Part shown: positions 10,299 through 53,413 of the stretch, piece after piece
How positions within the stretch are numbered: the stretch's first letter is position 1
Layout of the letters: every line of letters begins with the position of its first letter
Assembly (NCBI GenBank): GCA_944389475.1
Contig: CALXMM010000002.1
Location: forward strand, 19,483 to 83,482
DNA from: an uncultured Clostridia bacterium
GTDB lineage: Bacteria > Bacillota > Clostridia > TANB77 > CAG-508
DNA: 64,000 bases
Direction: 5' to 3'
Notes under the pieces: model-generated
What the model was told of the DNA's origin: nothing
Seen by the model: the letters and a program-made list of their open reading frames with translations, nothing else
The model's database searches: none
Made by a program: the position numbers and the translations under genes

Positions 10299-11828
10299 AA
10301 AGATAAGCTAACGATGCTAATGATATTGGATGGATTTGGAGAAAACAGCAAATCAGAAGGAAATGCTGTTAAGCTTGCAAATACACCTAATATAGATAGA
10401 CTAATGAAAATATGGCCAACAACAGATATTCATGCAAGTGAATTAAGTGTAGGTCTTCCAGAAGGTCAAATGGGAAATTCAGAGGTAGGACACACAAATA
10501 TTGGTGCTGGTAGGATAGTTTATCAAGAATTAACTAAAATTACAAAATCAATAGAAGATGGAGATTTCTTTTCTATACCAGAATTAGTAGAAGCAATAGA
10601 AAATTGTAAAAAGAATCATTCTAAGTTACATGTTCTAGGTCTTGTATCAGATGGAGGAGTTCATGGTCATATTCGTCATTTGTTTGCAGTTCTAGAACTT
10701 GCAAAAAGAAAAGATTTCGAAGATGTTTATGTACATTGCTTTACAGATGGTAGAGATACACCACCTGCTTCAGGAGAAGGATATATAGCTAAACTAGAAG
10801 AAAAGATGAAGGAAAAAGGTGTAGGTAAAATTGCCACAATTTCAGGAAGATTTTATGCAATGGACAGGGATAAAAGATGGAACAGAGTTCAAAAAGCATA
10901 TGATGCAATGGTAAAAGGAGAAGGAATTAAAGCAACTAGTGCAATTGCAGCAGTAGAAAGTTCTTACCAAAAAGAAGTTTTTGATGAGTTTATCGAACCA
11001 ACAGTTATTTGTAATGGGGAAACACCTATTGCAACAATAGAAGATGGTGATTCTGTTATTTGCTTTAACTTTAGACCTGATAGAGCAAGAGAAATAACTA
11101 GAGCATTAGTAGATCCAGACTTTAATGAATTTGAAACAAAGAAAATGAATTTAGATTATGTATGCTTTACACAATATGATGCAACAATGCCAAATGTAAA
11201 AATTGCTTTTAAACCAGAAAGATTAGTAAATACATTTGGAGAATATGTAAGCAAAAAAGGTTTAAAACAATTAAGAATAGCAGAAACAGAAAAATATGCA
11301 CATGTAACATTTTTCTTTAATGGTGGAGAAGAAAAACAATATCCAGGAGAAGATAGAATTTTAGTACCTTCTCCAAAGGTAGAAACATATGATATGAAAC
11401 CAGAAATGAGTGCTATAGAGGTTACAGATAAAGTTGTTGATGCAATTAATTCTAAAAAATATGATACTATTATTTTGAATTATGCAAATCCAGACATGGT
11501 TGGACATACAGGAAATCTAGAAGCAGCTATTAAAGCAATAGAAACAATAGATACTTGTGTAAAAAGAGTAGTGGATGCAGTAGAAGCACAAGATGGAGTA
11601 GTAATTATTACAGCTGACCATGGAAATGCGGAACAAATGATAGATTATAAAACAGGTGAACCACATACAGCTCATACAACTAATTTAGTTCCTCTAATAC
11701 TAGTAGGAATGAAAGATGTAAAACTAAAAGAAGGTAAACTTGCAGATTTAGCACCAACAATGTTAGAAATTATGGGACTAGATAAACCAGCTGAAATGAC
11801 AGGAGAAAGTTTAATAGTAAAAGAATAA
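10299..11828 (+). CDS. gpmI: 2,3-bisphosphoglycerate-independent phosphoglycerate mutase
   Basis: It has LMILDGFG and ITADHGNAE. The start may instead be at 10284. Confidence 0.93.
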   Translation, partial: KDKLTMLMILDGFGENSKSEGNAVKLANTPNIDRLMKIWPTTDIHASELSVGLPEGQMGNSEVGHTNIGAGRIVYQELTKITKSIEDGDFFSIPELVEAIENCKKNHSKLHVLGLVSDGGVHGHIRHLFAVLELAKRKDFEDVYVHCFTDGRDTPPASGEGYIAKLEEKMKEKGVGKIATISGRFYAMDRDKRWNRVQKAYDAMVKGEGIKATSAIAAVESSYQKEVFDEFIEPTVICNGETPIATIEDGDSVICFNFRPDRAREITRALVDPDFNEFETKKMNLDYVCFTQYDATMPNVKIAFKPERLVNTFGEYVSKKGLKQLRIAETEKYAHVTFFFNGGEEKQYPGEDRILVPSPKVETYDMKPEMSAIEVTDKVVDAINSKKYDTIILNYANPDMVGHTGNLEAAIKAIETIDTCVKRVVDAVEAQDGVVIITADHGNAEQMIDYKTGEPHTAHTTNLVPLILVGMKDVKLKEGKLADLAPTMLEIMGLDKPAEMTGESLIVKE

Positions 11829-14978: not shown

Positions 14979-15320
14979 TTGTCACACATGGAATCTAAAC
15001 TTATAATTAAGCGGTGTGATGATCTTGGACATGTTTATGTTTTCGAAATTATGGGCTATTGTCCAACACTTCTTGAAGTAGAATTCGAAAGAATGGCAGG
15101 TCGATTGGTTTCTGGTGATTGCTCTAATTTAGAAGGTGAATTGAAGGATTTCTGTAAATTCCAACGAAGAAATAATGGAATTAGGATTGACTTTCAAATC
15201 TTCGAATCGCCATACTCATTGGATGTAAATAACATTCATATGAATGAAAAAGGGCATACCACTAGAATAATTATTCGAGTGCGAAGGAGTATTATAAGGA
15301 TACTCAAAGAGCACCTTTAG
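14979..15320 (+). CDS. Small hypothetical protein (113 aa; start possibly the ATG at 14988)
   Basis: It has its own promoter and terminator, codon usage slightly GC-richer than the neighbouring genes, and cysteines. I recognise no family. Confidence 0.4.
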   Translation: MSHMESKLIIKRCDDLGHVYVFEIMGYCPTLLEVEFERMAGRLVSGDCSNLEGELKDFCKFQRRNNGIRIDFQIFESPYSLDVNNIHMNEKGHTTRIIIRVRRSIIRILKEHL

Positions 15321-15467: not shown

Positions 15468-16754
<1,287 letters not shown>

Positions 16755-19679: not shown

Positions 19680-19753
19680 TCGGGTATGGCCAAGCGGTAA
19701 GGCAGTAGGCTCTGACCCTACGATCGTTAGTTCGAATCTAACTACCCGAACCA
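19680..19753 (+). tRNA. tRNA-Gln (anticodon CUG)
   Basis: It folds as a cloverleaf by hand: acceptor tcgggta/tacccga, D-arm gcc-aagcggtaa-ggc, anticodon stem gtagg/cctac with loop cuCUGac, T-arm gttag-ttcgaat-ctaac, and an encoded CCA. It resembles B. subtilis tRNA-Gln. Confidence 0.85.
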
Positions 19754-19756
19754 GAA

Positions 19757-19800
19757 AATGCCTTTGTATTGCTATTTTACAAGGGCATAAATTTTTTACA
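19757..19800 (+). terminator. Terminator after tRNA-Gln
   Basis: The stem atgcctttg...caagggcat is followed by AAATTTTTTAC. Confidence 0.55.
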
Positions 19801-19829
19801 AAAAACCGAACAAAATTTCGAAAAAAGTA

Positions 19830-19858
19830 TTGACAAAAATAAAAATAGAATATAAAAT
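19830..19858 (+). promoter_or_regulatory. Sigma-A-like promoter (TTGACA ... TATAAAAT)
   Basis: It has the -35 TTGACA and an AT-rich -10, and lies about 100 nt upstream of the CDS at 19962. Confidence 0.4.
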
Positions 19859-19961
19859 ACAATCATCAAAAGCAAACAAGAGTTCGAACAATATATTGCT
19901 TAGTAATTTAATAAATTAAAAGTTAATTAATATAAAAGCGAGATATTGAGGAGGTTTTATT

Positions 19962-29814: not shown

Positions 29815-30742
29815 AAATGAAAAAGTAGCTACAAGACAAAGTTATGGAGAGGAATTAGCTATTTTAGGAGAAAAAAATGAAAAAATAGTTGTTTTGGATG
29901 CAGATTTATCAAGTGCCACAAAAACTAATATTTTTGCTAAGAAATTTCCAAATAGATTTTTTGACATGGGAATCGCAGAACAAGATATGATGGGAACTGC
30001 TGCAGGTCTAGCAACTTGTGGAAAGATTCCTTTTGCAAGCACTTTTGCTATGTTTGCCGCAGGAAGAGCTTATGACCAAATACGAAATAGTATTTGTTAT
30101 CCAAAATTAAATGTTAAAATATGTGCAACTCATGCAGGAATAACTGTTGGAGAAGATGGGGCTACTCATCAAATGATAGAAGATATATCTTTAATGAGAA
30201 CAATTCCAAATATGAAGGTAATGTGCACATCAGATGATATACAAACAAGATGGGCTGTTAATGAAATAGCAAAAATTGATGGACCAGTATATTTAAGATT
30301 GTGTAGGTTAGCAACTCCAAAAATATATAACCAAGATGAAAAATTTGAATTTGGAAAAGGGGTTCAAATTGGAAATGGAACGGATGCAACGGTAATAGCT
30401 ACTGGAGTTACTGTGTCAGAAGCAATTGATGCTATGGAAGAATTAAAAAATAATGGAGTAAATATTAGAGTTATAGATATGCATACCATAAAGCCAATTG
30501 ACAAAGATATAATAATTAAAGCTGCTAAAGAAACAAAAAAAATAATAACAGTAGAAGACCATAATATAATTGGTGGATTAGGCTCTGCTGTTTGTGAAGT
30601 TTTAGCAGAAAATTATCCAACTAAAGTTTATAGAATGGGTATAAAAGATGTTTTCGGAAAATCTGGGAAAGCACAGGAATTATTAAAATATTTTAAAATA
30701 GATAAAACAGCGATAATGGAAGCAATTACACAGAATAAATAG
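29804..30742 (+). CDS. tktC: Transketolase, C-terminal (pyrimidine-binding) subunit
   Basis: RQSYGEEL...DADLSSATKT...HAGITVGEDGATHQ is the transketolase Pyr domain. It overlaps the tktN stop codon. Confidence 0.9.
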   Translation: MMNKNEKVATRQSYGEELAILGEKNEKIVVLDADLSSATKTNIFAKKFPNRFFDMGIAEQDMMGTAAGLATCGKIPFASTFAMFAAGRAYDQIRNSICYPKLNVKICATHAGITVGEDGATHQMIEDISLMRTIPNMKVMCTSDDIQTRWAVNEIAKIDGPVYLRLCRLATPKIYNQDEKFEFGKGVQIGNGTDATVIATGVTVSEAIDAMEELKNNGVNIRVIDMHTIKPIDKDIIIKAAKETKKIITVEDHNIIGGLGSAVCEVLAENYPTKVYRMGIKDVFGKSGKAQELLKYFKIDKTAIMEAITQNK

Positions 30743-30839
30743 TGTAAATTTTTATGTACCCTCTTGCAATAAATTGTATTTATTGTTATTATATCTTGTA
30801 GATATAAACAAAAATATATCGAATTAAGGAGCAATTGAT

Positions 30840-31520
30840 ATGATAGAATTTAGAAATGTTACCAAAAAGTATGAGACAGGCACAGTTGCATTAAAAAATG
30901 CTAATTTTATTATAGAAAAAGGAGAGTTCGCTTTCCTAGTAGGAGCTTCTGGTTCAGGAAAATCAACAATTATTAAATTAATTTTAAAAGAAGAAGATCC
31001 TACATCTGGAAACATTATAATAAATGGAAAAGATACTACATTCTTAAAACCAAATAGAATTCCATATTTAAGAAGAAGCATGGGAGTCGTATTCCAAGAC
31101 TTTAGATTATTACCAGATAAAACAGTATACGAAAATGTAGCATTTGCAATGTATATAGTAAAAGCTACACCTAGACATATTAGAAGACAGGTACCTATGG
31201 TATTATCATTGGTTGGATTAAGTGCAAAAGCAAAAATGTATCCAAACGAGTTATCAGGAGGAGAGCAACAAAGAGTAGCACTTGCTAGAGCTTTAGTTAA
31301 TAATCCTTCAATGTTAATTGCTGATGAGCCTACAGGAAACTTGGATCCAGATACTGCATGGGATATTATGACATTATTAAATGATATCAATTTAAGAGGA
31401 ACTACAGTTGTAGTTGCAACTCATGCAAAAGATATTGTAGACCAAATGAATAAGAGAGTTATTCATATTCGTAAAGGCTCAATAGTAAAAGATGATGAAA
31501 AAGGTGGGTATGAATTGTGA
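30840..31520 (+). CDS. ftsE: Cell division ATP-binding protein FtsE
   Basis: It has ABC ATPase motifs (GASGSGKST, LSGGEQQRVALARAL) and is followed by ftsX. Confidence 0.9.
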   Translation: MIEFRNVTKKYETGTVALKNANFIIEKGEFAFLVGASGSGKSTIIKLILKEEDPTSGNIIINGKDTTFLKPNRIPYLRRSMGVVFQDFRLLPDKTVYENVAFAMYIVKATPRHIRRQVPMVLSLVGLSAKAKMYPNELSGGEQQRVALARALVNNPSMLIADEPTGNLDPDTAWDIMTLLNDINLRGTTVVVATHAKDIVDQMNKRVIHIRKGSIVKDDEKGGYEL

Positions 31521-32437
31521 GATATAATGTAATAACTTATTTAATTGGGGAAGGATTTAGAAATGTTTTCAAAAATAAAAAATCAACTAGTGCTTCAATA
31601 ATAATTATGAGTCTTACTATGTTAATATTTGGTGTGTTCTTTGTAATTACAGAAAATATTAATAGCATAATGAAACAAATAGAAAGTGAACAAGGAATAG
31701 AGGTATTCTTATATGACATTTCAGAAGACCAAACAAAAGCAATAGGGGATTACATAAGAAATATAGATGGAGTAAATACTGTAGAGTATAAAACAAAAGA
31801 AGATGCTTTAAATCAATTAAAAAGTCAATTTAAGGATAGGGAAGATTTATTATCAGGATATGATGAAAACAATATTTTCCCAGCATCTTATGTTGTAACA
31901 TTAACCGATTTAACGAAGAGTGATGAAGTACAACAAAAAATAAGGGCCTATGATGATGGCAAGTCCGATTCAGAAAAGGTAATAAAGAATATAACAAGTA
32001 AAGATGAAACCGTATCAACTTTAGTTAGTTTAGCTAATGGTGTTAAAATTATAACTGGTGTAATTTTAGTAATTTTAATTTTAATATCAATATTCATAAT
32101 AGCCAATACAATAAAACTTACTGTACATGCAAGAAGAAGAGAAATATCTATAATGAAATATGTGGGAGCTACTAATAGTTTTATAAGATGGCCATTCATT
32201 GTAGAAGGTATAATTATTGGAATAATATCAGGAGCAATCTCAATAATTATTTTAGGAATAAATTATAATTTAATTGCAGGAAAGATCTTAGAATCACAAG
32301 TTGTATCAGCTATGAATATAAATTTATTAACATTTGCAGATATGTTTGGATTAATAGTTTTAGTATATACAATATTAGGAGTTGGAATTGGTGTTTTAGG
32401 AAGTTGTATTTCTATGCGTAGATATTTAAAAGTATAG
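31517..32437 (+). CDS. ftsX: Cell division permease-like protein FtsX
   Basis: It has four TM segments with a large first extracellular loop, and overlaps the ftsE stop codon. Confidence 0.85.
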   Translation: MRYNVITYLIGEGFRNVFKNKKSTSASIIIMSLTMLIFGVFFVITENINSIMKQIESEQGIEVFLYDISEDQTKAIGDYIRNIDGVNTVEYKTKEDALNQLKSQFKDREDLLSGYDENNIFPASYVVTLTDLTKSDEVQQKIRAYDDGKSDSEKVIKNITSKDETVSTLVSLANGVKIITGVILVILILISIFIIANTIKLTVHARRREISIMKYVGATNSFIRWPFIVEGIIIGIISGAISIIILGINYNLIAGKILESQVVSAMNINLLTFADMFGLIVLVYTILGVGIGVLGSCISMRRYLKV

Positions 32438-32451
32438 CAAAGGAGTATAAT

Positions 32452-33612
32452 ATGAAAAAAATTCTAAAAATATTAATGATAATAACATTATTAATATCAA
32501 CTTTTGGGTTTCAAGAGACTTTTGCGGCTGATTTGAATGACTTACAACAACAACAGTCACAAGTGCAAGCAAATCAAGACATGGCAACGACCCAACTTCA
32601 AGCCGTACAAGAAGAATTAACAACAAATTTACAGCAAATTGTAGAATTAAATAACAATATTACACAGTATGAAGCCGAAATAAATAACTATAATTCTCAA
32701 ATTGTAAGCTTACAAGATAGTATTTCAAATACAGAGCAAGAAATCCAAAAAGCTCAACAAAATTATGATAGCCAAAAGAAATTATTAGATGATAGGCTTG
32801 TAACTATGTATGAAGCGGGTTCAACGGAATATCTAGATGTGGTATTAAGTTCAAAAAATATAACCGACTTTTTATCAACATATTATTTGTTATCTATATT
32901 AACAAGTAATAATGTAGATTTTCTAGATACAATAGAAAAACAAAAACAAACAATAGAAGATGAAAAGAAAAAATTAGAAGAACAAAAACAGCAAATCGAT
33001 ACAGCAAAACAAGAAAAAGAAAAAGCTTCAATTATATTGCAAAATACAAAAGTTATGAAGGATACATATACATCACAGTTAACAGACCAAGAAAAACAAA
33101 TACAATCAGAAATTGATGCATATCAAACACAATTAAATCAAATAGAATCAGAGATTCAATCAATAACAGCAAATAACTTAATATTAAATCCAAATTACAT
33201 TGGAGGAGAAATGCTATGGCCATTGCCAGGGTATACAAAATTAAGTTCAACATTTAAGATGAGAGTTCATCCAATAACCGGTGTATATAAATTACACACA
33301 GGAATTGATATACCAGCACCTATAGGAACGAATTTCTTGGCAGCAAATGATGGTGTTGTAGTAAAAGCAGAATATAATACAGCATATGGTAACATGGTTA
33401 TGATAGACCATGGAGGAGGAGTATCTACATTATATGCACATGGAAGTAAAATAATGGTAAGTGTAGGACAACAAGTAAAAAAAGGAGATGTGGTTTTGCT
33501 AGTTGGTGAAACAGGTTATGCAACAGGACCACATGGACATTTCGAGGTAAGAATAAATGGTTCACCAGTGGATCCATTACCATATGTAACTAATCAAAAT
33601 GGAGTAAATTAA
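32452..33612 (+). CDS. Coiled-coil M23 (LytM) peptidase, EnvC/PcsB-like
   Basis: It has a signal peptide, a Q-rich coiled coil, and the M23 motifs HTGIDI and GPHGHFEV. Confidence 0.8.
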   Translation: MKKILKILMIITLLISTFGFQETFAADLNDLQQQQSQVQANQDMATTQLQAVQEELTTNLQQIVELNNNITQYEAEINNYNSQIVSLQDSISNTEQEIQKAQQNYDSQKKLLDDRLVTMYEAGSTEYLDVVLSSKNITDFLSTYYLLSILTSNNVDFLDTIEKQKQTIEDEKKKLEEQKQQIDTAKQEKEKASIILQNTKVMKDTYTSQLTDQEKQIQSEIDAYQTQLNQIESEIQSITANNLILNPNYIGGEMLWPLPGYTKLSSTFKMRVHPITGVYKLHTGIDIPAPIGTNFLAANDGVVVKAEYNTAYGNMVMIDHGGGVSTLYAHGSKIMVSVGQQVKKGDVVLLVGETGYATGPHGHFEVRINGSPVDPLPYVTNQNGVN

Positions 33613-33634
33613 CTTAAAAAACGGAGGATAAAAA

Positions 33635-34798
33635 ATGAAAAAAATATGCTTAAAAATTTTAATAACATTATTAGCAATAGTTGTAATATTTAGTTCATTA
33701 TCAATAACATATGCTGCTTCAAATATAAGCAGTGAAAAAAGCGAATTAAATCAAAAAATAAAAGAAACAAAAGAAGATTTAAATGAAGTTAATAGTCAAA
33801 AGAAAGAATCACAAAATAAAGTTAATGATTTATCAAATCAAATATCTTCATATGAAACACAAATTAATTCTTTAAAAAGTGAAATTGAAACCAAAACCAA
33901 TGAAGTAAATGAAATGCAAAAAAAATTAGATAAACTAGAGGAAGAAAGAGAAAAGAATCAAAAATTATTGGATGAAAGATTAGTTACATTATATGAATCT
34001 GGAGAAGTTTCATATATGGATGTATTATTATCTTCTGCTGATATAACAGAGTTTATATCTAATTATTATATGATAGAAACATTAACAGCAGCAGATAAAG
34101 AATTAATACAAAACTTAGAAAATGAAAAGAATGAAATAGCAGATACTCAAACAAAATTAAATGCTAGCTTGGAAGAAATTGAATCTAAAAAAACTCAATT
34201 AGAATCTGTACAATCAGAATTAAGTAAGGCTAAGAATGAAGAACAAAAAAAGGTTGACAATTTAACTCAACAATCAGAAGATTTGGAAGAAAATGTCGAA
34301 GAATATGAAAAACAAATGAAAGAGCTTGATAAGAAAGAACAAGAACAAGAAGCACAATTAAAATCAAAAATTCAAGCAGCTCAATCAGCAGCAGCATCTT
34401 CAGGAACAAGTTCTTCTGGATTTATAAGACCAGTTAAAACTGGAAGTATTACAGCAACAATGTATTATTCAAGCGGAAAATATCATGGAGCAGTAGATTT
34501 TGGTGTACCAGTTGGAACACCAGTATATGCAGCAGCTGATGGTGTTGTAGTTACAGCAACTTGGGGTGGTTCAGACAGCTATGGATACTATGTAAAAATT
34601 AAGCATTACAATGGATTATATACTTTATATGCACATGCATCTTCTTTAGTTGTAAGTGCAGGACAAGTAGTAAAACAAGGACAGTTAATAATGTATTCTG
34701 GAAATACAGGAAACTCAACGGGTCCACATTGTCATTTCGAAGTAAGAGTATCTCCTGGAGGATATAGTAATAGAGTTAATCCATTAAATTATTTATAA
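33635..34798 (+). CDS. Coiled-coil M23 (LytM) peptidase, a tandem paralog
   Basis: It has a signal peptide, a coiled coil, and the M23 motifs HGAVDFG and GPHCHFEV. Confidence 0.8.
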   Translation: MKKICLKILITLLAIVVIFSSLSITYAASNISSEKSELNQKIKETKEDLNEVNSQKKESQNKVNDLSNQISSYETQINSLKSEIETKTNEVNEMQKKLDKLEEEREKNQKLLDERLVTLYESGEVSYMDVLLSSADITEFISNYYMIETLTAADKELIQNLENEKNEIADTQTKLNASLEEIESKKTQLESVQSELSKAKNEEQKKVDNLTQQSEDLEENVEEYEKQMKELDKKEQEQEAQLKSKIQAAQSAAASSGTSSSGFIRPVKTGSITATMYYSSGKYHGAVDFGVPVGTPVYAAADGVVVTATWGGSDSYGYYVKIKHYNGLYTLYAHASSLVVSAGQVVKQGQLIMYSGNTGNSTGPHCHFEVRVSPGGYSNRVNPLNYL

Positions 34799-34804
34799 AA
34801 AATA

Positions 34805-34848
34805 GGGATTTTAGGTTTATACCTAAAATTCCTATTTTTTGTTGTATA
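34805..34848 (+). terminator. Rho-independent terminator
   Basis: The stem ggattttaggt...acctaaaattcc is followed by TATTTTTTG. Confidence 0.65.
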
Positions 34849-34900
34849 GGAAAATCGAAAATTTTGACCATATAAAAATGAATAAAAACCGTTAATTTCT

Positions 34901-35596
34901 TTGGGAAATGTTTCATTTGCAATAGTACCAAAAACAACTGAATTCTATGTTAATGATTCAGCAAACTTATTATCTAATGATACAGAAAAATATATAATTA
35001 ATATGAATAAAGCATTAGAGGATAAAACTGGAGCACAAATTGTGGTAGTAACTGTAAAGAATTTAGAAGGTAAATCCATAGAAGATTATGCAACTGAATT
35101 ATTTAGAGATTATGGTATTGGAAATAAAGAGAAAAATAATGGAGTTCTATTATTATGTGCCTATCAAGAAAGACAATTTAGAATAGAAGTAGGCTATGGA
35201 TTAGAGGGAATACTAACTGATGGTAAGACAGGGAGAATTCAAGATAATTATATAATTCCATATTTAAGTCAAAATAATTTTAATGATGGAATAAAGAATG
35301 GATTTAATGCTGTATTACAAGAAGTGGAAAGTGAATATGGAATTACGATAGATGGTGCACAGGAAGGAAATATTGTAGGAACAAGTACAACTGCTAAAAC
35401 TGTTAATAGTTTGATACCACATGTGATTTTATTTATATTTTTTATTTTACTTATGTTTTTCTCTGCCAGACATGGATTCTTCTTCATTGGAGGAATTGGA
35501 ACCGGAAGAGGAGGCTTTGGAGGGGGATCTTTTGGTGGAGGCTCATTTGGAGGTGGAGGTTTATCCGGGGGAGGAGGTTCTTCAAGAAGGTTTTAA
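34901..35596 (+). CDS. TPM-domain (YgcG-like) protein with a C-terminal TM segment and a Gly-rich tail, and an apparent TTG start
   Basis: The TPM core reads VVVTVKNLEGKSIEDYA...GVLLLCAYQERQFRIEVGYGLE. The tail is GGFGGGSFGGGSFGGGG. There is no in-frame ATG or signal peptide. Confidence 0.6.
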   Translation: MGNVSFAIVPKTTEFYVNDSANLLSNDTEKYIINMNKALEDKTGAQIVVVTVKNLEGKSIEDYATELFRDYGIGNKEKNNGVLLLCAYQERQFRIEVGYGLEGILTDGKTGRIQDNYIIPYLSQNNFNDGIKNGFNAVLQEVESEYGITIDGAQEGNIVGTSTTAKTVNSLIPHVILFIFFILLMFFSARHGFFFIGGIGTGRGGFGGGSFGGGSFGGGGLSGGGGSSRRF

Positions 35597-35619
35597 AATT
35601 TAATTTAAAAAAATGGTAT

Positions 35620-35660
35620 TAATGATTTTCATTAATACCATTTTTAGGTATTTAGTTATT
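35620..35660. terminator. Bidirectional terminator
   Basis: A perfect 13-bp stem, atggtattaatga/tcattaataccat, is flanked by an A-run and a T-run. Confidence 0.7.
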
Positions 35661-35837
35661 ATATAAATTTTTTTCATATAAATCTTCAATACGTACATCT
35701 TTTTCTTCAAAATTATCAATAAATCCAACTTTAGCAATATCATTATTAACTTCTTGAATCCACACAGGTCTTTCATTATAAAAAATATCAACTTTTTGCT
35801 TATTTCTTAAAATTTCATGTATTTGCGAAGCTTTCAT
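35652..35837 (-). CDS. sspH: Small acid-soluble spore protein, SspH family
   Basis: ERPVWIQEVNNDIAKVGFIDN aligns with B. subtilis SspH (GVPVYIQHVDEQNETARIFPLDN). The protein is about 61 aa from the internal Met. Confidence 0.65.
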   Translation of the reverse strand: MKASQIHEILRNKQKVDIFYNERPVWIQEVNNDIAKVGFIDNFEEKDVRIEDLYEKNLYNN

Positions 35838-35956
35838 AAAAATCATCTCCTTATATAACTTGTACTAATAATATATCCAAAATATAGAAAAATATGCCAA
35901 TAAAAATTAATAAAAAGGGAAAATCCCTATGATGTAATAACATCATAAGGATTTCC

Positions 35957-36169
35957 CTACCAGAACCAAATTGTAAATAGTAAGAAAAATATAATCTTAC
36001 CAATTAATATAATGGTTCCTTGTCGTTCCGTGTGCTCTTCTGGTTTAAACAGCTTATTAAAAAACCAATTAAGGAGTAATAAAACCAGTCCATAAATGGC
36101 AAACCAAAAAGCAATGTCTCCCAGTCCAAAGATAAGAGCAAGAATCAACAAAATAATGAAAAACCACAT
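35957..36169 (-). CDS. Small hydrophobic membrane protein (hypothetical)
   Basis: A 70-aa product with two predicted TM helices. The evidence is weak. Confidence 0.3.
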   Translation of the reverse strand: MWFFIILLILALIFGLGDIAFWFAIYGLVLLLLNWFFNKLFKPEEHTERQGTIILIGKIIFFLLFTIWFW

Positions 36170-36366
36170 TTTAAGCTCCTTTCAAAAGCCAATAAACATA
36201 TTGTAGTGGGTTCATTTATTTTGATTTATTCAACAAATAATATAATTATATTATACCATATTATTTTACATAATTCAAAAAATATATATTTAGAGATAGA
36301 AAATAGAACAAAAAAAGAGTATCAAGTAAATTCATAAAATACTTGATACTCTAAATAATTTTGAAT

Positions 36367-36441
36367 TGGTGACCCGTACGGGAATCGAACCCATGATTCA
36401 GCCTTGAGAGGGCTGCGTCTTAACCGCTTGACCAACGGGCC
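36367..36441 (-). tRNA. tRNA-Glu (anticodon CUC)
   Basis: The reverse complement reads ggcccgt-tg-gtc-aagcggttaa-gac-g-cagcc-cuCUCaa-ggctg-aatc-atggg-ttcgatt-cccgt-acgggtc-a-cca. It is nearly identical to B. subtilis tRNA-Glu except that anticodon position 34 is C. Confidence 0.85.
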
Positions 36442-44837: not shown

Positions 44838-46601
44838 ATGATGGGAAGAAAGAAAAGAATATTAATTATAGTACTTTCTATCTCAATTGTTTTACTTGTA
44901 ATAATAGGAGGAATTTTATTCTATTTAAATTATGCAACAGATACTTTTAAAAGTACAAATGAATTATTTTATAAATATCTTTATCAGAATGGTTCAATAG
45001 CAAATGTTTTTGATACAAATTTATTAGATAGGTATTATCAAAAAATAGATAATAATCCATATAATGGTACTGGGGAATTAACTATAAAAACTGGAATGGC
45101 AGATAATTCAGAAAGTGATACGAAAGAATTTGATGAGTTCTTAAATAATTTAAAATTAACCTATGAAACCAAAAGTAATTTATCAGAGAAAAAACAAGAA
45201 GTAGAAACTAAAATTTCATATAATGACCAGGAACAATTTAAATTTAACATAATAAAAAATGATAATAATTATGGCATAAAATCTGATGAAGTAGTATATA
45301 AATATTTAGTTGTAAAAAATGAAAATTTAAGAGATATTTATAATAAATTAGGTGTACAAAATGCAGATAATATTCCAAATCAATTTAGTAGAATAGACTA
45401 TAATATTTATAAAAACATGAATGCTGAAGATAAGTCTAAGATTTTATCTACATATCAAAATTTATTAAATTCTGAAATACAAGAAAATCACTACTCAAAA
45501 CAATCAAAAGTTAATTTAACAGTAAATGGACAAAATATTGTTACTAATGCATATGCTTTAAGCTTAACAGGACAAGAAATAGCTTCATTAAAAATCAGTT
45601 TTTTAGAAACTTTAATGGAAGATGAATTAACTTTAAAATATATAGTTCAATTTTTACAAATGGACCCATCATATACTGTTCAATTAAAACAAAATATACA
45701 GGAGAAAATAGATGCATTAAAAAGGGAACAACAGACTAATGATGTTGTTAAAATCACGGTTTATGAGAGTAATAGACAACTTGTAACAACTAGAATTGAA
45801 AGCAAGGATTTTAACTATACAATTGATAATATTATATCTGAAAATAACCAAAAAGTAATAGTAACAAAAACTTCTAATGATGGCAATAATATAAATGATA
45901 CTCTTACAATCGAAAGAAATACATCTGATAGTAAGAATTCATTATACATAGAATATGTTTCAAAGACTGGAGAAACAACAACTAATAGAAATGCCTTAAC
46001 AATAGAATTAGATGGTATTATTGAATCAAACGAGTTAAGTATAAATGCTAAGTTTGAAAATCTTGATGGAAATAAAACAAATGAAATTAATTTAAGTGAT
46101 AAGAAAGAATTTACATCAGAGGTAGATGTGGATGAGTTAAATTCTGATAATGCTGTAAGTGTTAATGCAATGAATGTGGAGGATTTAAAATCTTTGTATA
46201 ATGCACTTATAGATAGACTAAAGAGCTTATATAATGAAAAGGTTCAAAATTTAGGAATTGATGTTAATACAATAAACTATCAAGGAAGTTTAAAATGGAG
46301 TCGAATAGTTGATGCATTTGATGAAGATGAATTTAAAGCGCAAGTCCAAAGAGCTTTAAATCTAGCAAAGGATGATTTACAAAATAGGGATGAATACAAA
46401 GCATTAATAGAGCAAGCTTCTGGTGATACGAATAAAATTAATCAAGTAAAAGGTTTAGTAACAGTGGAACGATTAAAAGAAACAGGATTAGATGCTTCAT
46501 TAAATGGAGAAGACAATTCTATTTCGATAAAGACTAATAGCGAATCTGCTCATAAATATGAAATAGATTATGATAATTTTAAAATATCAAAAATAGAATA
46601 G
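44838..46601 (+). CDS. N-terminally membrane-anchored extracytoplasmic protein of unknown function (587 aa)
   Basis: It has a single N-terminal TM helix followed by an N/K/T-rich soluble region. I recognise no family. Confidence 0.5.
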   Translation: MMGRKKRILIIVLSISIVLLVIIGGILFYLNYATDTFKSTNELFYKYLYQNGSIANVFDTNLLDRYYQKIDNNPYNGTGELTIKTGMADNSESDTKEFDEFLNNLKLTYETKSNLSEKKQEVETKISYNDQEQFKFNIIKNDNNYGIKSDEVVYKYLVVKNENLRDIYNKLGVQNADNIPNQFSRIDYNIYKNMNAEDKSKILSTYQNLLNSEIQENHYSKQSKVNLTVNGQNIVTNAYALSLTGQEIASLKISFLETLMEDELTLKYIVQFLQMDPSYTVQLKQNIQEKIDALKREQQTNDVVKITVYESNRQLVTTRIESKDFNYTIDNIISENNQKVIVTKTSNDGNNINDTLTIERNTSDSKNSLYIEYVSKTGETTTNRNALTIELDGIIESNELSINAKFENLDGNKTNEINLSDKKEFTSEVDVDELNSDNAVSVNAMNVEDLKSLYNALIDRLKSLYNEKVQNLGIDVNTINYQGSLKWSRIVDAFDEDEFKAQVQRALNLAKDDLQNRDEYKALIEQASGDTNKINQVKGLVTVERLKETGLDASLNGEDNSISIKTNSESAHKYEIDYDNFKISKIE

Positions 46602-46673
46602 ATTGCAATAAACAAAGTTGACATTAAAAATACAGTGTATTGCAAAAATACAGTATATTGCAACAAATAAACA

Positions 46674-46702
46674 TTGCTAAATTATGTAAATTGTGATAAA
46701 AT
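46674..46702 (+). promoter_or_regulatory. Promoter with an extended -10 (TTGCTA-N12-TGTGATAAAAT), preceded by ATTGCAA direct repeats
   Basis: It is seen directly, about 55 nt upstream of the GC-rich ORF. Confidence 0.4.
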
Positions 46703-46756
46703 AATAATGTATGGCATTAGCTATATTGAAATGGTACTCCAATAGAAAGGATTAAA

Positions 46757-47407
46757 ATGAAGGTTCCAGAATACACGAATCTTGAAGATCTCGATAAGAG
46801 AAAGAAGATTCGGGTTTCTATCCCCCGTGATCGGTGTACTGTGATTCCTGCGGAATTTAGTGGTTGGAAATATCCTCAAGAATTTACAGGAAATGACTGG
46901 TTAAGTCCGATTTCTGCAAAGTCAAGTCAGCTTCCTGTAAAGCCTCATCAACTTTGCGCAAAGCTTGTTGGTCTTGCAGAAGACAAGAAGTCGGGCGGTC
47001 ATCCGGTTTATGTGGTAGATCCTTCTACTACATTGCTTAAGCTGGGTGGACCGAATGGCATGGACTTTGGTCCAGGTATCTTGGATAGGATTTGTAGGGA
47101 CATGTTCATTCAACCCGGTGTTATTGCGGCTTTTAGCCTGACACGTTCGGTGTTGGAAAGGTTCGATTACGAACACGAAGATTGTGCTGTGCCTTATTGG
47201 GTATCCTCTCGAGTCACGGAAGTATTCAATAAATCCTGCGAATACAACCTTTGCAGGGTGAGAGATGGCAGACTTCACCTTAGAAGACTGTATAATTCTG
47301 ATGGATTCGGTCGGAACCGAGAAGGTGCTGTTCGTGCGGTAATCGTACTGCAAACCAAGGTGCCTAGCACCAAGGGGCGCACCGACATCAAGTGGGTTGA
47401 GTTCTAG
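46757..47407 (+). CDS. Compositionally foreign hypothetical protein (216 aa; gene about 47% GC against a genome of about 28%)
   Basis: Its length is very improbable by chance at this GC content. It has an AAAGGA RBS 5 nt upstream and a host-like promoter. The product is R/V/P/G/C-rich, unlike host proteins. An alternative reading is a structured RNA. Confidence 0.4.
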   Translation: MKVPEYTNLEDLDKRKKIRVSIPRDRCTVIPAEFSGWKYPQEFTGNDWLSPISAKSSQLPVKPHQLCAKLVGLAEDKKSGGHPVYVVDPSTTLLKLGGPNGMDFGPGILDRICRDMFIQPGVIAAFSLTRSVLERFDYEHEDCAVPYWVSSRVTEVFNKSCEYNLCRVRDGRLHLRRLYNSDGFGRNREGAVRAVIVLQTKVPSTKGRTDIKWVEF

Positions 47408-47447
47408 GTACCAGTAAAGAAACCTCTGTAATAGGGGTTTCTTTACA
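47407..47447 (+). terminator. Hairpin terminator after the GC-rich gene
   Basis: A perfect 11-bp stem, gtaaagaaacc/ggtttctttac, is followed by a weak T tract. Confidence 0.5.
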
Positions 47448-47486
47448 TATATATTATAAGCAAATAAAAATTCTAGTGATTTACTA

Positions 47487-47515
47487 TTGACAAAAATTAA
47501 AAATACTAGTATACT
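47487..47515 (+). promoter_or_regulatory. Sigma-A promoter for rpmF (TTGACA-17-TATACT)
   Basis: The hexamers are seen directly in the sequence. Confidence 0.5.
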
Positions 47516-47587
47516 AATACAGTAATGGAATTTATGAGAAAAATTAAATAGATATATAAATATCTTATGTTAAAGGGGGGAATAAAA

Positions 47588-47782
47588 ATGGCACAACCAA
47601 AAAGAAGATGGTCAAAACAAAGAACTCATAAAAGAAGATCAACATGGAAATTAGAAACTCCAAAATTTACAACATGCTCACATTGCCATGAACCTGTAAT
47701 GCCACACAGAGTTTGCCCAACATGTGGATATTATAATGGAGAAGAAGTTGTAGTTAAGGAAACAAAAACAGCAAATAATTAA
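47588..47782 (+). CDS. rpmF: 50S ribosomal protein L32
   Basis: MAQPKRRWSKQRTHKRRSTWKL...CSHCHEPVMPHRVCPTCGYYNG aligns with B. subtilis L32. The track's ATG at 47567 is an upstream false start. Confidence 0.85.
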   Translation: MAQPKRRWSKQRTHKRRSTWKLETPKFTTCSHCHEPVMPHRVCPTCGYYNGEEVVVKETKTANN

Positions 47783-53063: not shown

Positions 53064-53397
53064 AAGAGTAAATTAGACAGTCGCGTATAGCAAGGTCGAA
53101 AGGCAGCGTACGAGGAAAGTCCGGGCTCCATAGAGCAATGATGCTGGATAACGTCCAGTGAGGGAAACCTTAAGGAAAGTGCAACAGAAAATAACCGCCA
53201 GAAATGGTAAGGGTGAAAAGGTGAGGTAAGAGCTTACCGCAGATATGGTGACATATCTGGTCAATGTAAACCCCATCTGGAGCAACACCGAGCTTGAGGG
53301 TTAAGACTGCTCGTCATCCTCTTATTGGTGGCTTGAGCCATATGGTAACATATGGAATAGATAAATGACTGTCCAAGACAGAACCCGGCTTATAGAT
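53064..53397 (+). ncRNA. rnpB: RNase P RNA (bacterial type A)
   Basis: It has the universal P4 sequences GAGGAAAGTCCGGGCTCCATAG and ACAGAACCCGGCTTA, and a 5' CAGACAGTCGC like E. coli M1 RNA. P1 pairs agagtaaatt with agatttactt. Confidence 0.8.
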
Positions 53398-53413
53398 TTA
53401 CTTATATATCAAA

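Follow-up and report, generated by a model that had tools for sequence, protein, structure and literature searches.

The 64,000-nt stretch of DNA analysed here (hereafter the window), part of contig CALXMM010000002.1 of an uncultured Clostridia bacterium, contains directly upstream of rpmF an open reading frame (ORF) of 651 nt and 216 codons (46757-47407, + strand), here named X, whose content of guanine and cytosine (GC) departs sharply from that of its surroundings. The reading that we favour, at about even odds (a probability of roughly 0.5), is that X is a paralog native to its lineage, in whose coding sequence selection at the mRNA level, most likely favouring a stable message with dense pairing, keeps GC high and third-position A low. 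The original prediction for this locus, which was made from the sequence alone, had described a compositionally aberrant single-gene unit of no recognised family, and this part of it stood, whereas its proposals of an orphan, of a recent acquisition from a higher-GC donor and of a structured RNA were not supported; nor is X a homolog of DUF177/YceD.

The GC content of X is 46.4% as compared to 28.4% for the window, in agreement with the approximately 47% and 28% originally given, and amounts to 0.54, 0.42 and 0.43 at the first, second and third codon positions (GC1, GC2 and GC3), respectively. Of the window's 53 longest ORFs that do not overlap one another, X alone has a GC3 above 0.30, the remaining 52 ranging from 0.075 to 0.298. 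Measured over 200 nt at a time, GC rises from 0.27 before X to 0.45-0.50 across it and returns to 0.25 after it; the elevation is bounded by the start codon and the stop codon of X, and the 200-nt maximum of 0.50 did not reproduce the local values of about 55% that had been reported. At third positions, A drops from 0.50 in the host to 0.20 in X while T is unchanged at 0.37, and C increases from 0.06 to 0.18 and G from 0.08 to 0.245, so that G/C-ending codons are about tripled; the ortholog of X in a second lineage (see below) has the same third-position values. Lysine is encoded by 13 AAG and 2 AAA codons in a host whose AAA share is 84%, a preference unlike that of the neighbouring genes to which the earlier reading had also drawn attention. 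AAA, ATA and TTA are avoided, whereas GAA and CAA are still preferred. The GC-richness of X is a codon-level, strand-asymmetric property, and the depletion of A at third positions (A3) with T at third positions (T3) remaining flat argues against DNA-level causes such as GC-biased gene conversion (gBGC) or avoidance of nucleoid proteins, and for a cause at the level of RNA or translation. Since the highly expressed enolase gene (15474-16754) has an ordinary GC3 of 0.145, the codon usage of X is not the high-expression (optimal) set of the host. Runs of A/T in X showed no avoidance beyond what codon usage alone yields. The 143-codon antisense ORF that had been pointed out is present (46922-47353, - strand) as a by-product of codon usage and is not a gene: it shares its register with the sense codons, and it is open only because the sense frame of X hardly uses TTA, CTA and TCA, the codons that read as stops on the opposite strand; a single TTA and a single TCA occur in it, both outside the antisense stretch.

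The ortholog of X lies at the same locus in a second lineage (contigs L030/L031), with synteny extending over 16-20 kb and an identity of about 87% over 16 kb, and has a GC content of 45% and a GC3 of 0.42. The two lineages are close to saturation at synonymous sites, and the synonymous divergence (dS) between their X genes is 0.75, as compared to 0.40-1.05 in 13 neighbouring genes. The proportion of synonymous differences (pS) stays even over the length of X, at 0.40-0.57, and resembles that in the flanks, and its profile contains no low-divergence recombination tract covering X. Amelioration was assessed at the 69 four-fold degenerate sites of X in this one lineage pair, with the neutral process taken from 11 neighbouring genes (1230 four-fold sites). 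The four-fold equilibrium of these neighbours is A 0.52, C 0.043, G 0.044 and T 0.39, and their G/C states are near randomised between the lineages (C to C 0.17, G to G 0.11). Under this process an ancestral GC content at four-fold sites (GC4) of 0.4-0.6 decays to 0.19-0.26 today, and one of 1.0 decays to 0.39; the value observed in X is 0.37. A neutral ancestor of X obtained by back-calculation would need a negative frequency of A, which is impossible, and the best fit of neutral amelioration was rejected (G=33.6, 6 degrees of freedom, p=8e-6), the predicted identity being 0.42 and the observed identity 0.62. A stationary mutation-selection model with the full divergence time does fit (p=0.19; Akaike information criterion, AIC, 329.5), with scaled fitness values relative to A of +2.3 for C, +2.7 for G and +1.2 for T, and we infer that this order, which is G>C>U>A in the message, mirrors base-pairing capacity. 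G/C-ending four-fold sites were retained at 14 of 25.5 in X versus 15 of 107 in the neighbours (Fisher p=5e-5), a 3.5 times higher retention in X, whereas A/T-ending sites were retained equally (0.67 in X and 0.68 in the neighbours). Because A/T-ending sites are retained equally and G/C-ending sites are over-retained, X is as old as its flanks in the two lineages, with its G/C third positions specifically preserved.

Given that X occupies the same slot in two lineages, that its dS equals that of its flanks and that neutral amelioration is rejected, the claim of a recent acquisition from a higher-GC donor could not be upheld; as to the donor, the nearest relatives of X are AT-rich genes of related Clostridia known from metagenome-assembled genomes (MAGs), with homologous promoter, leader and terminator. 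Genes called 'alien' and read as recent horizontal transfers share with X a sharp deviation in GC and codon usage confined to one gene. X differs from them in lacking mobility signatures, in being of the same age as its flanks with no amelioration, in having native-looking AT-rich genes as its closest homologs and in the strand asymmetry of its base shift. A GC island confined to one gene is commonly taken as evidence of recent horizontal transfer, whereas the evidence on X points to a gene as old as its flanks, with silent sites that withstand a strong AT bias in both lineages. If the favoured reading is true, X would be a warning for the composition-based detection of transferred genes. In the same comparison of lineages, rpmF has a pS of 0.026 (1 of 39 synonymous sites) and the spacer between X and rpmF (47408-47587) is 94% identical, the flanking genes having a pS of 0.25-0.57; this suggests either very strong constraint on the short rpmF segment or its recent exchange.

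A comparable composition was found in a distant member of the protein family to which X belongs. P0087 (L058:598-1227) is about 22% identical to X and comes from another subfamily, another locus and another AT-rich host. Its GC content is 0.449 and its GC3 0.424, as compared to 0.27-0.29 and 0.12-0.13 in its neighbours; at third positions A is 0.28 versus 0.54-0.57 in the neighbours, T is 0.29 versus 0.30-0.34, and C and G are raised 3-5 times. P0087 has the cassette of regulatory elements typical of the family (see below), with a leader stem AGTCA/TGACT at the corresponding place. Its same-locus relative P0162 (44% identity) has a GC3 of only 0.18. When X is left aside, the mean GC3 excess of family genes over their locus mean is +0.067 (p=6e-4). 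It would take a coincidence for two unrelated transfers to have drawn on donors of one and the same composition, and a selective regime specific to the family accounts for both cases more simply.

The stability of the predicted mRNA folds was determined as a z score of minimum free energy (MFE) against shuffled sequences in which protein and codon usage are both preserved. The MFE z was -3.63 for X, -3.40 for its ortholog (L030), -4.86 for P0087, and -5.34, -5.73, -2.89 and -2.40 for the family genes P0003, arr7726, arr8484 and arr6949, respectively, while 11 control genes ranged from +0.6 to -2.7; the family mRNAs fold more stably than the controls (Mann-Whitney p=0.005). RNAalifold paired a GGUAC motif of the leader with a GUACC motif just past the stop codon, and this predicted pairing would close the whole X message. 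In the mechanism that we propose, selection on synonymous sites would act through the mRNA to maintain the composition of X, and its most likely target would be a densely base-paired, nuclease-resistant and long-lived message, with a 5′ hairpin as its cap, possibly a closure by the GGUAC/GUACC pairing, and a strong terminator at its end; in the distant P0087 this signature would have arisen independently. As a comparison, the 5′ stem-loop or STAB-type mRNA stabilisers of Firmicutes (the ermC, aprE and cryIIIA leaders) would resemble X in its hairpin at the predicted 5′ end, its strong 3′ terminator and its monocistronic message, and differ in that the coding sequence of X itself also appears to be selected for pairing and GC. 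More tentatively, and with the balance of probability tilted against it, individual genes of the family may at least twice have been rewritten and then held GC-rich, A3-depleted and hyper-paired behind a 5′ hairpin, in an 'armoured mRNA' or codon-gated mode of expression that runs against the AT bias; a sharp GC island in these ultra-AT-rich Clostridia would then not necessarily be a sign of horizontal transfer. If the favoured reading is true, X would illustrate cleanly, in a natural bacterial gene, how strongly selection can act on synonymous sites and on the architecture of an mRNA. A literature search on the phenomenon was unproductive.

Several results weigh against selection for a paired message as the explanation. 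RNAalifold on three sequences gave no net covariation for a global fold of the coding sequence (term +2.96), and neither a conserved specific internal structure nor long internal inverted repeats were identified in X. Excess folding was not seen in the array paralog arr9234 (z -0.61) and in two L046 members of the family (z -1.3 and -2.0). Because P0003 and arr7726 fold with an equally strong z yet stay AT-rich, structure alone cannot explain the GC-richness of X. The four-fold test rests on 69 sites in one lineage pair, and the 11 neighbouring genes that supplied the reference neutral process are possibly themselves under codon selection. A family-specific regime does not explain why only some members reach an extreme GC3. 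Lastly, the function of the protein is a guess, Foldseek having returned no structural analog.

Among the other explanations, X could be a xenolog, that is, a family member which had reached equilibrium in a host of intermediate GC content (about 45-50%), entered this lineage and, after the two lineages had split, either moved between them or reached each from a common pool; the two X alleles would then be younger than their flanks, and the GC excess residual. We consider this unlikely, although its chance is appreciable. Its composition is strongly atypical, and freeing the divergence time improves the neutral model greatly (t/T=0.40, ancestral GC4 0.53, likelihood ratio 20.1); however, this 'younger allele' model still fits poorly (p=0.019), its AIC is 336.3 versus 329.5 for stationary selection, the A/T-ending sites, having diverged as those of the neighbours, contradict it, and pS is uniform across X and equal to that of the flanks, with no low-divergence tract over X. 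X was found in no GTDB species representative, in which two array loci of the family were found, insertion sequence (IS) elements lie beside the L046 family cluster, and the proteins P0041, P0063 and P0089 have a GC-shifted amino-acid composition, all of which favour an outside origin. On the other hand, no family member with an amino-acid composition of the high-GC type was seen, no homolog closer than P0003 was found among 15 billion proteins, and tblastn against phage and plasmid collections returned nothing. At the X locus itself, no integrase or transposase, tRNA target or bracketing repeats were found, the promoter, leader and terminator are those of the AT-rich family cassette, and the convergence of two unrelated members, X and P0087, on a GC3 of about 0.42-0.43 and on an A3-specific depletion also stands against transfer. 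A further reading is that the identity of the codons is selected and not the structure of the message, rare codons making translation slow or dependent on tRNA supply or modification, as a mirror image, in an AT-rich genome, of bldA/TTA control. X and its ortholog do use codons which have a within-family frequency of 0.00-0.03 in the host (the nearly unused ones being CTG, CTC, CGG, CCC, CCG, TCG and AAG), synonymous G/C sites are conserved between the lineages, and the GC3 of enolase sets the usage of X apart from the optimal set of the host. We regard this reading as improbable, as it explains neither why folding exceeds that of shuffles with unchanged codon usage nor why GAA and CAA are still preferred beside the avoidance of AAA, ATA and TTA.

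GC-biased gene conversion at an often-recombining locus would raise GC3, as is seen in X, and many alleles of the protein look recombinant, with all four bases present at one site; yet gBGC is strand-symmetric, whereas only A3 is depleted in X and T3 is unchanged, the flanking genes, which would share the recombination tracts, have an ordinary GC3, and rpmF, seemingly exchanged recently, has no comparable rise in the 200-nt GC profile. This explanation is very unlikely. The proposal of a large structured non-coding RNA, whose frame would be kept open by chance through stability constraints, had in its favour the high GC content within an AT-rich genome and an MFE z of -4.1 for X against dinucleotide shuffles, and the mRNA does have an excess of predicted structure. 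When 46550-47600 was searched against Rfam (4227 families including OLE, ROOL, GOLLD and raiA), nothing reached the gathering threshold, and a cut-off relaxed to E<=10 brought up noise alone (E 0.24-7.4). Protein homologs of X were found at 99%, 68% and 47% identity and down to about 20%; the comparison with the 68% ortholog (same locus, second lineage, L011/L030) that had been suggested as a check revealed codon-level constraint, with a ratio of non-synonymous to synonymous divergence (dN/dS) of 0.19 and 34, 25 and 67 substitutions at codon positions 1, 2 and 3, respectively. X is a translated gene and not a structured RNA, because there is no Rfam match, dN/dS is low, substitutions are biased to third positions, homologs exist and the protein has a confident fold model; a ribosome-binding site (RBS) at the correct spacing and the lack of net covariation in the global fold point the same way, and the RNA proposal is already effectively refuted.

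As for the protein, a profile search retrieved 789 proteins at E<=1e-3, 63 at E<=1e-10 and 23 at E<=1e-30, so that X, which had been taken for an orphan, belongs, judging from these sequence matches, to a sizeable family outside the curated libraries searched. The representative of the X cluster matches the family profile with an E of 5.4e-78 over positions 1-201, with the motif columns conserved. Family members are stand-alone proteins of about 200 amino acids without a signal peptide, from AT-rich Firmicutes, and share the motifs SGY..Q.FTS, GL...HP.Y, G..GY.NG, IC..L, ARS, YWLAS and [IV]RP[VI].VL; the family core (L.L.G..GY.NG...C..L....ARS / YWLAS / [IV]RP[VI].VL) spans approximately residues 65-200 of X. 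In line with the earlier statement that no known family could be recognised, Pfam, NCBIfam, PHROGs and PADLOC provided a family neither for X nor for the 36 family members and 93 distant relatives examined. X had no Pfam match even at E<=10, and the PADLOC anti-phage models gave nothing below E 0.0038, the weak matches being scattered single ones. Pfam DUF6273, a candidate suggested by the YWL.S...RP motif, was rejected after one of the 36 members matched at E 0.088 and X and the 35 others did not. An AlphaFold2 model built from a 36-sequence alignment reached a predicted local distance difference test score (pLDDT) of 93.6 and a predicted template modelling score (pTM) of 0.90, and it was used in place of one from a 10-sequence alignment, which was unusable (pLDDT 41). 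According to the model, the 216-residue product would be a soluble, mostly beta protein, with low confidence (pLDDT about 61) in a loop at residues 51-60. Foldseek searches of PDB and BFVD were without a match at E<=0.001, TM scores not exceeding 0.19, and a sequence-profile search of the PDB gave only a chance match to a thermosome (E 0.63).

The family core also forms the C-terminal module of proteins with prepilin-type, pseudopilin-like N-termini and occurs inside giant surface proteins bearing Flg_new, Big and Fn3 repeats, and this shared domain was covered by no model in the libraries searched, Pfam and NCBIfam included. The core of X matches these type IV pilin-like (N_methyl) and giant surface proteins in two stretches (E 1e-8 to 1e-17), and the YWLAS...RPVV.L signature is common to both. 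In contrast to the pilin-like proteins, X has no prepilin motif, transmembrane helix, signal peptide or N_methyl match; its N-terminus is charged (MKVPEYTNLEDLDKRKK), and about 60 N-terminal residues form an additional beta unit. The N-terminal methylation motif was present in 3 of the 93 distant relatives. No conserved catalytic constellation was evident. The proportion of non-synonymous differences (pN) falls from 0.21 to 0.06 along X, the N-terminal quarter evolving fastest. Among 4 nucleotide alleles from 21 loci, six of the seven variable sites are nonsynonymous, and residue 27 (nt 79 of the gene, position 46835 of the window), beside the conserved Arg26, occurs as TGT, GGT, AGT and CGT (Cys, Gly, Ser and Arg). 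Because there is no catalytic motif, the N-terminal part evolves fast and one residue is hypervariable, we infer that the protein may be a module for binding or recognition rather than an enzyme. What emerges besides is a sizeable family of proteins with a confident predicted fold and with neither a curated family entry nor a solved structural analog, linked to pseudopilin-like and giant surface proteins.

X forms a clade with P0002 and P0003 (98% bootstrap), and of the relatives found at loci other than rpmF, P0003 is the closest. It occupies the final place in a tandem array of five diverged paralogs, which are 23-30% identical to X; this array directly precedes mutL-miaA in MAGs of uncultured Clostridia that stem from the same series of samples (L001:6949-10597, and also L024, L028 and L029). 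A second family cluster, likewise upstream of mutL, is found in a more distant AT-rich organism (L046:5334-9054), where IS elements adjoin it. The array genes, with a GC3 of 0.11-0.18, are ordinary AT-rich paralogs. Each paralog is a self-contained cassette consisting of a TTGnTA-17-TGaTAAAAT promoter, a hairpin about 8 nt past the -10 box, GGTAC, the RBS GAAAGGA and the ATG, followed after the stop codon often by GTACC and then by a strong terminator. The GGTAC(T) of the leader and the (A)GGTACC past the stop codon are mutually complementary and recur in the cassettes of L001, L030 and L048. The leader hairpin is kept in 12 cassettes with differing stems (CAGC/GCTG, TAGC/GCTA, TGGC/GCTA, TCAGC/GCTGA and AGTCA/TGACT); in the alignment 93% of the cells are paired and both sides have changed in three of six pairs, a covariation score that was reached by 4 of 500 shuffles, while slid controls collapsed. 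Between X and P0003 the promoter/leader and terminator regions are 72-79% identical, and synonymous sites are saturated between the genes. X resembles the roughly 200-residue proteins of the mutL arrays (P0003-P0013 in L001, L024, L028 and L029; the P0161 cluster in L046) in its full-length profile matches (E 1e-78 to 1e-87), in the family motifs and in the cassette of promoter, leader hairpin, GGTAC, RBS and terminator, and differs in being a singleton at the rpmF locus, in its GC3 of 0.43 and in a 14-residue loop insertion.

X is present in both lineages that have the DUF6583-X-rpmF locus. None of the GTDB species representatives has it, not even two related MAGs with the array, although MAGs are possibly incomplete. 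Samples with X and samples with the array overlapped minimally, one of them (BRZ_HV) containing both an X contig and an array contig, with coverages of 4.0 and 6.9. The genes upstream of the array are, by sequence inspection, TasA/camelysin-like, HD-domain and SecDF-like, with no functional link to the family. An 825-codon ORF of the window at 26429 that was considered as mutL encodes a papain-like protease instead, and the window therefore cannot show whether this genome also has the mutL array.

X is a monocistronic, translated gene with its own extended -10 promoter, leader stem-loop, RBS and intrinsic terminator, all on the + strand. The sigma-70-type promoter TTGCTA-17-TAAAAT with its extended -10 (TG) lies at 46674-46702 and is homologous to the promoters of the array cassettes. 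It is followed by the leader stem-loop TATGGC-ATTA-GCTATA at 46710-46725, which lies 8 nt past the -10 box, where the mRNA is predicted to start, by the conserved motif GGTACT at 46733-46738, complementary to the AGGTACC just past the stop codon, and by the RBS AAAGGA at 46746-46751, which is 5 nt upstream of the ATG and is kept in all cassettes. Within the coding sequence, a lineage-specific insertion of 14 codons (46901-46942; residues 49-62, LSPISAKSSQLPVK) forms the surface loop and is absent from all homologs. The GGTACC motif at 47407-47412, the 3′ partner of the leader GGTAC, overlaps the last base of the stop codon, and the terminator hairpin at 47414-47446, homologous to the array terminators, has 15 pairs when G-U is allowed (11 perfect Watson-Crick pairs, then U.G and two more). 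The extended -10 promoter, the RBS at 5 nt and the perfect 11-bp hairpin that had been described are therefore all present, and the unit immediately before rpmF is indeed a self-contained single gene of aberrant composition. Two tandem 18-nt direct repeats, AAAAATACAGTrTATTGC (46626-46661, + strand), closely precede the -35 box; they are absent in the second lineage (L011/L030), and ATTGCAA-like motifs recur near them. Downstream of the X terminator, rpmF (47588-47782) has its own near-consensus promoter (47487-47515, + strand) and an ATG at 47588, 180 nt past the end of X. X holds the position directly upstream of rpmF at which a DUF177/yceD gene had been expected, but not the homology, since there was no Pfam DUF177 match even at E<=10. 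The neighbours of the locus are lepA, a SpoU methylase gene, DUF6583, rpmF, der, plsY and gpsA. The X locus recurs, identical or near-identical, in more than 30 independent contigs of up to 252 kb from several sequencing projects, and misassembly or contamination, which had been raised as a possible source of the signal, is excluded on this ground. In the second lineage, L030 lacks at 10790-10800 a segment of 86 nt including the rpmF start that is present in L031 (4356-4441), the contigs being otherwise 99.8% identical; this gap is probably an assembly or scaffolding artefact.

Elsewhere in the window, 14979-15320 is the other, mild GC3 outlier (GC 0.35, GC3 0.30), with a 113-codon ORF that has a promoter-like region, an RBS, a terminator and no Pfam match. 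Two adjacent large genes for Peptidase_C1 (papain-family) proteases with an 11-nt overlap lie at 24490-28906, the first also encoding a Lectin_like domain. Another local GC peak corresponds to a class A bacterial RNase P RNA at 53065-53408 (280 bits), and five tRNA genes lie within 19680-36441.

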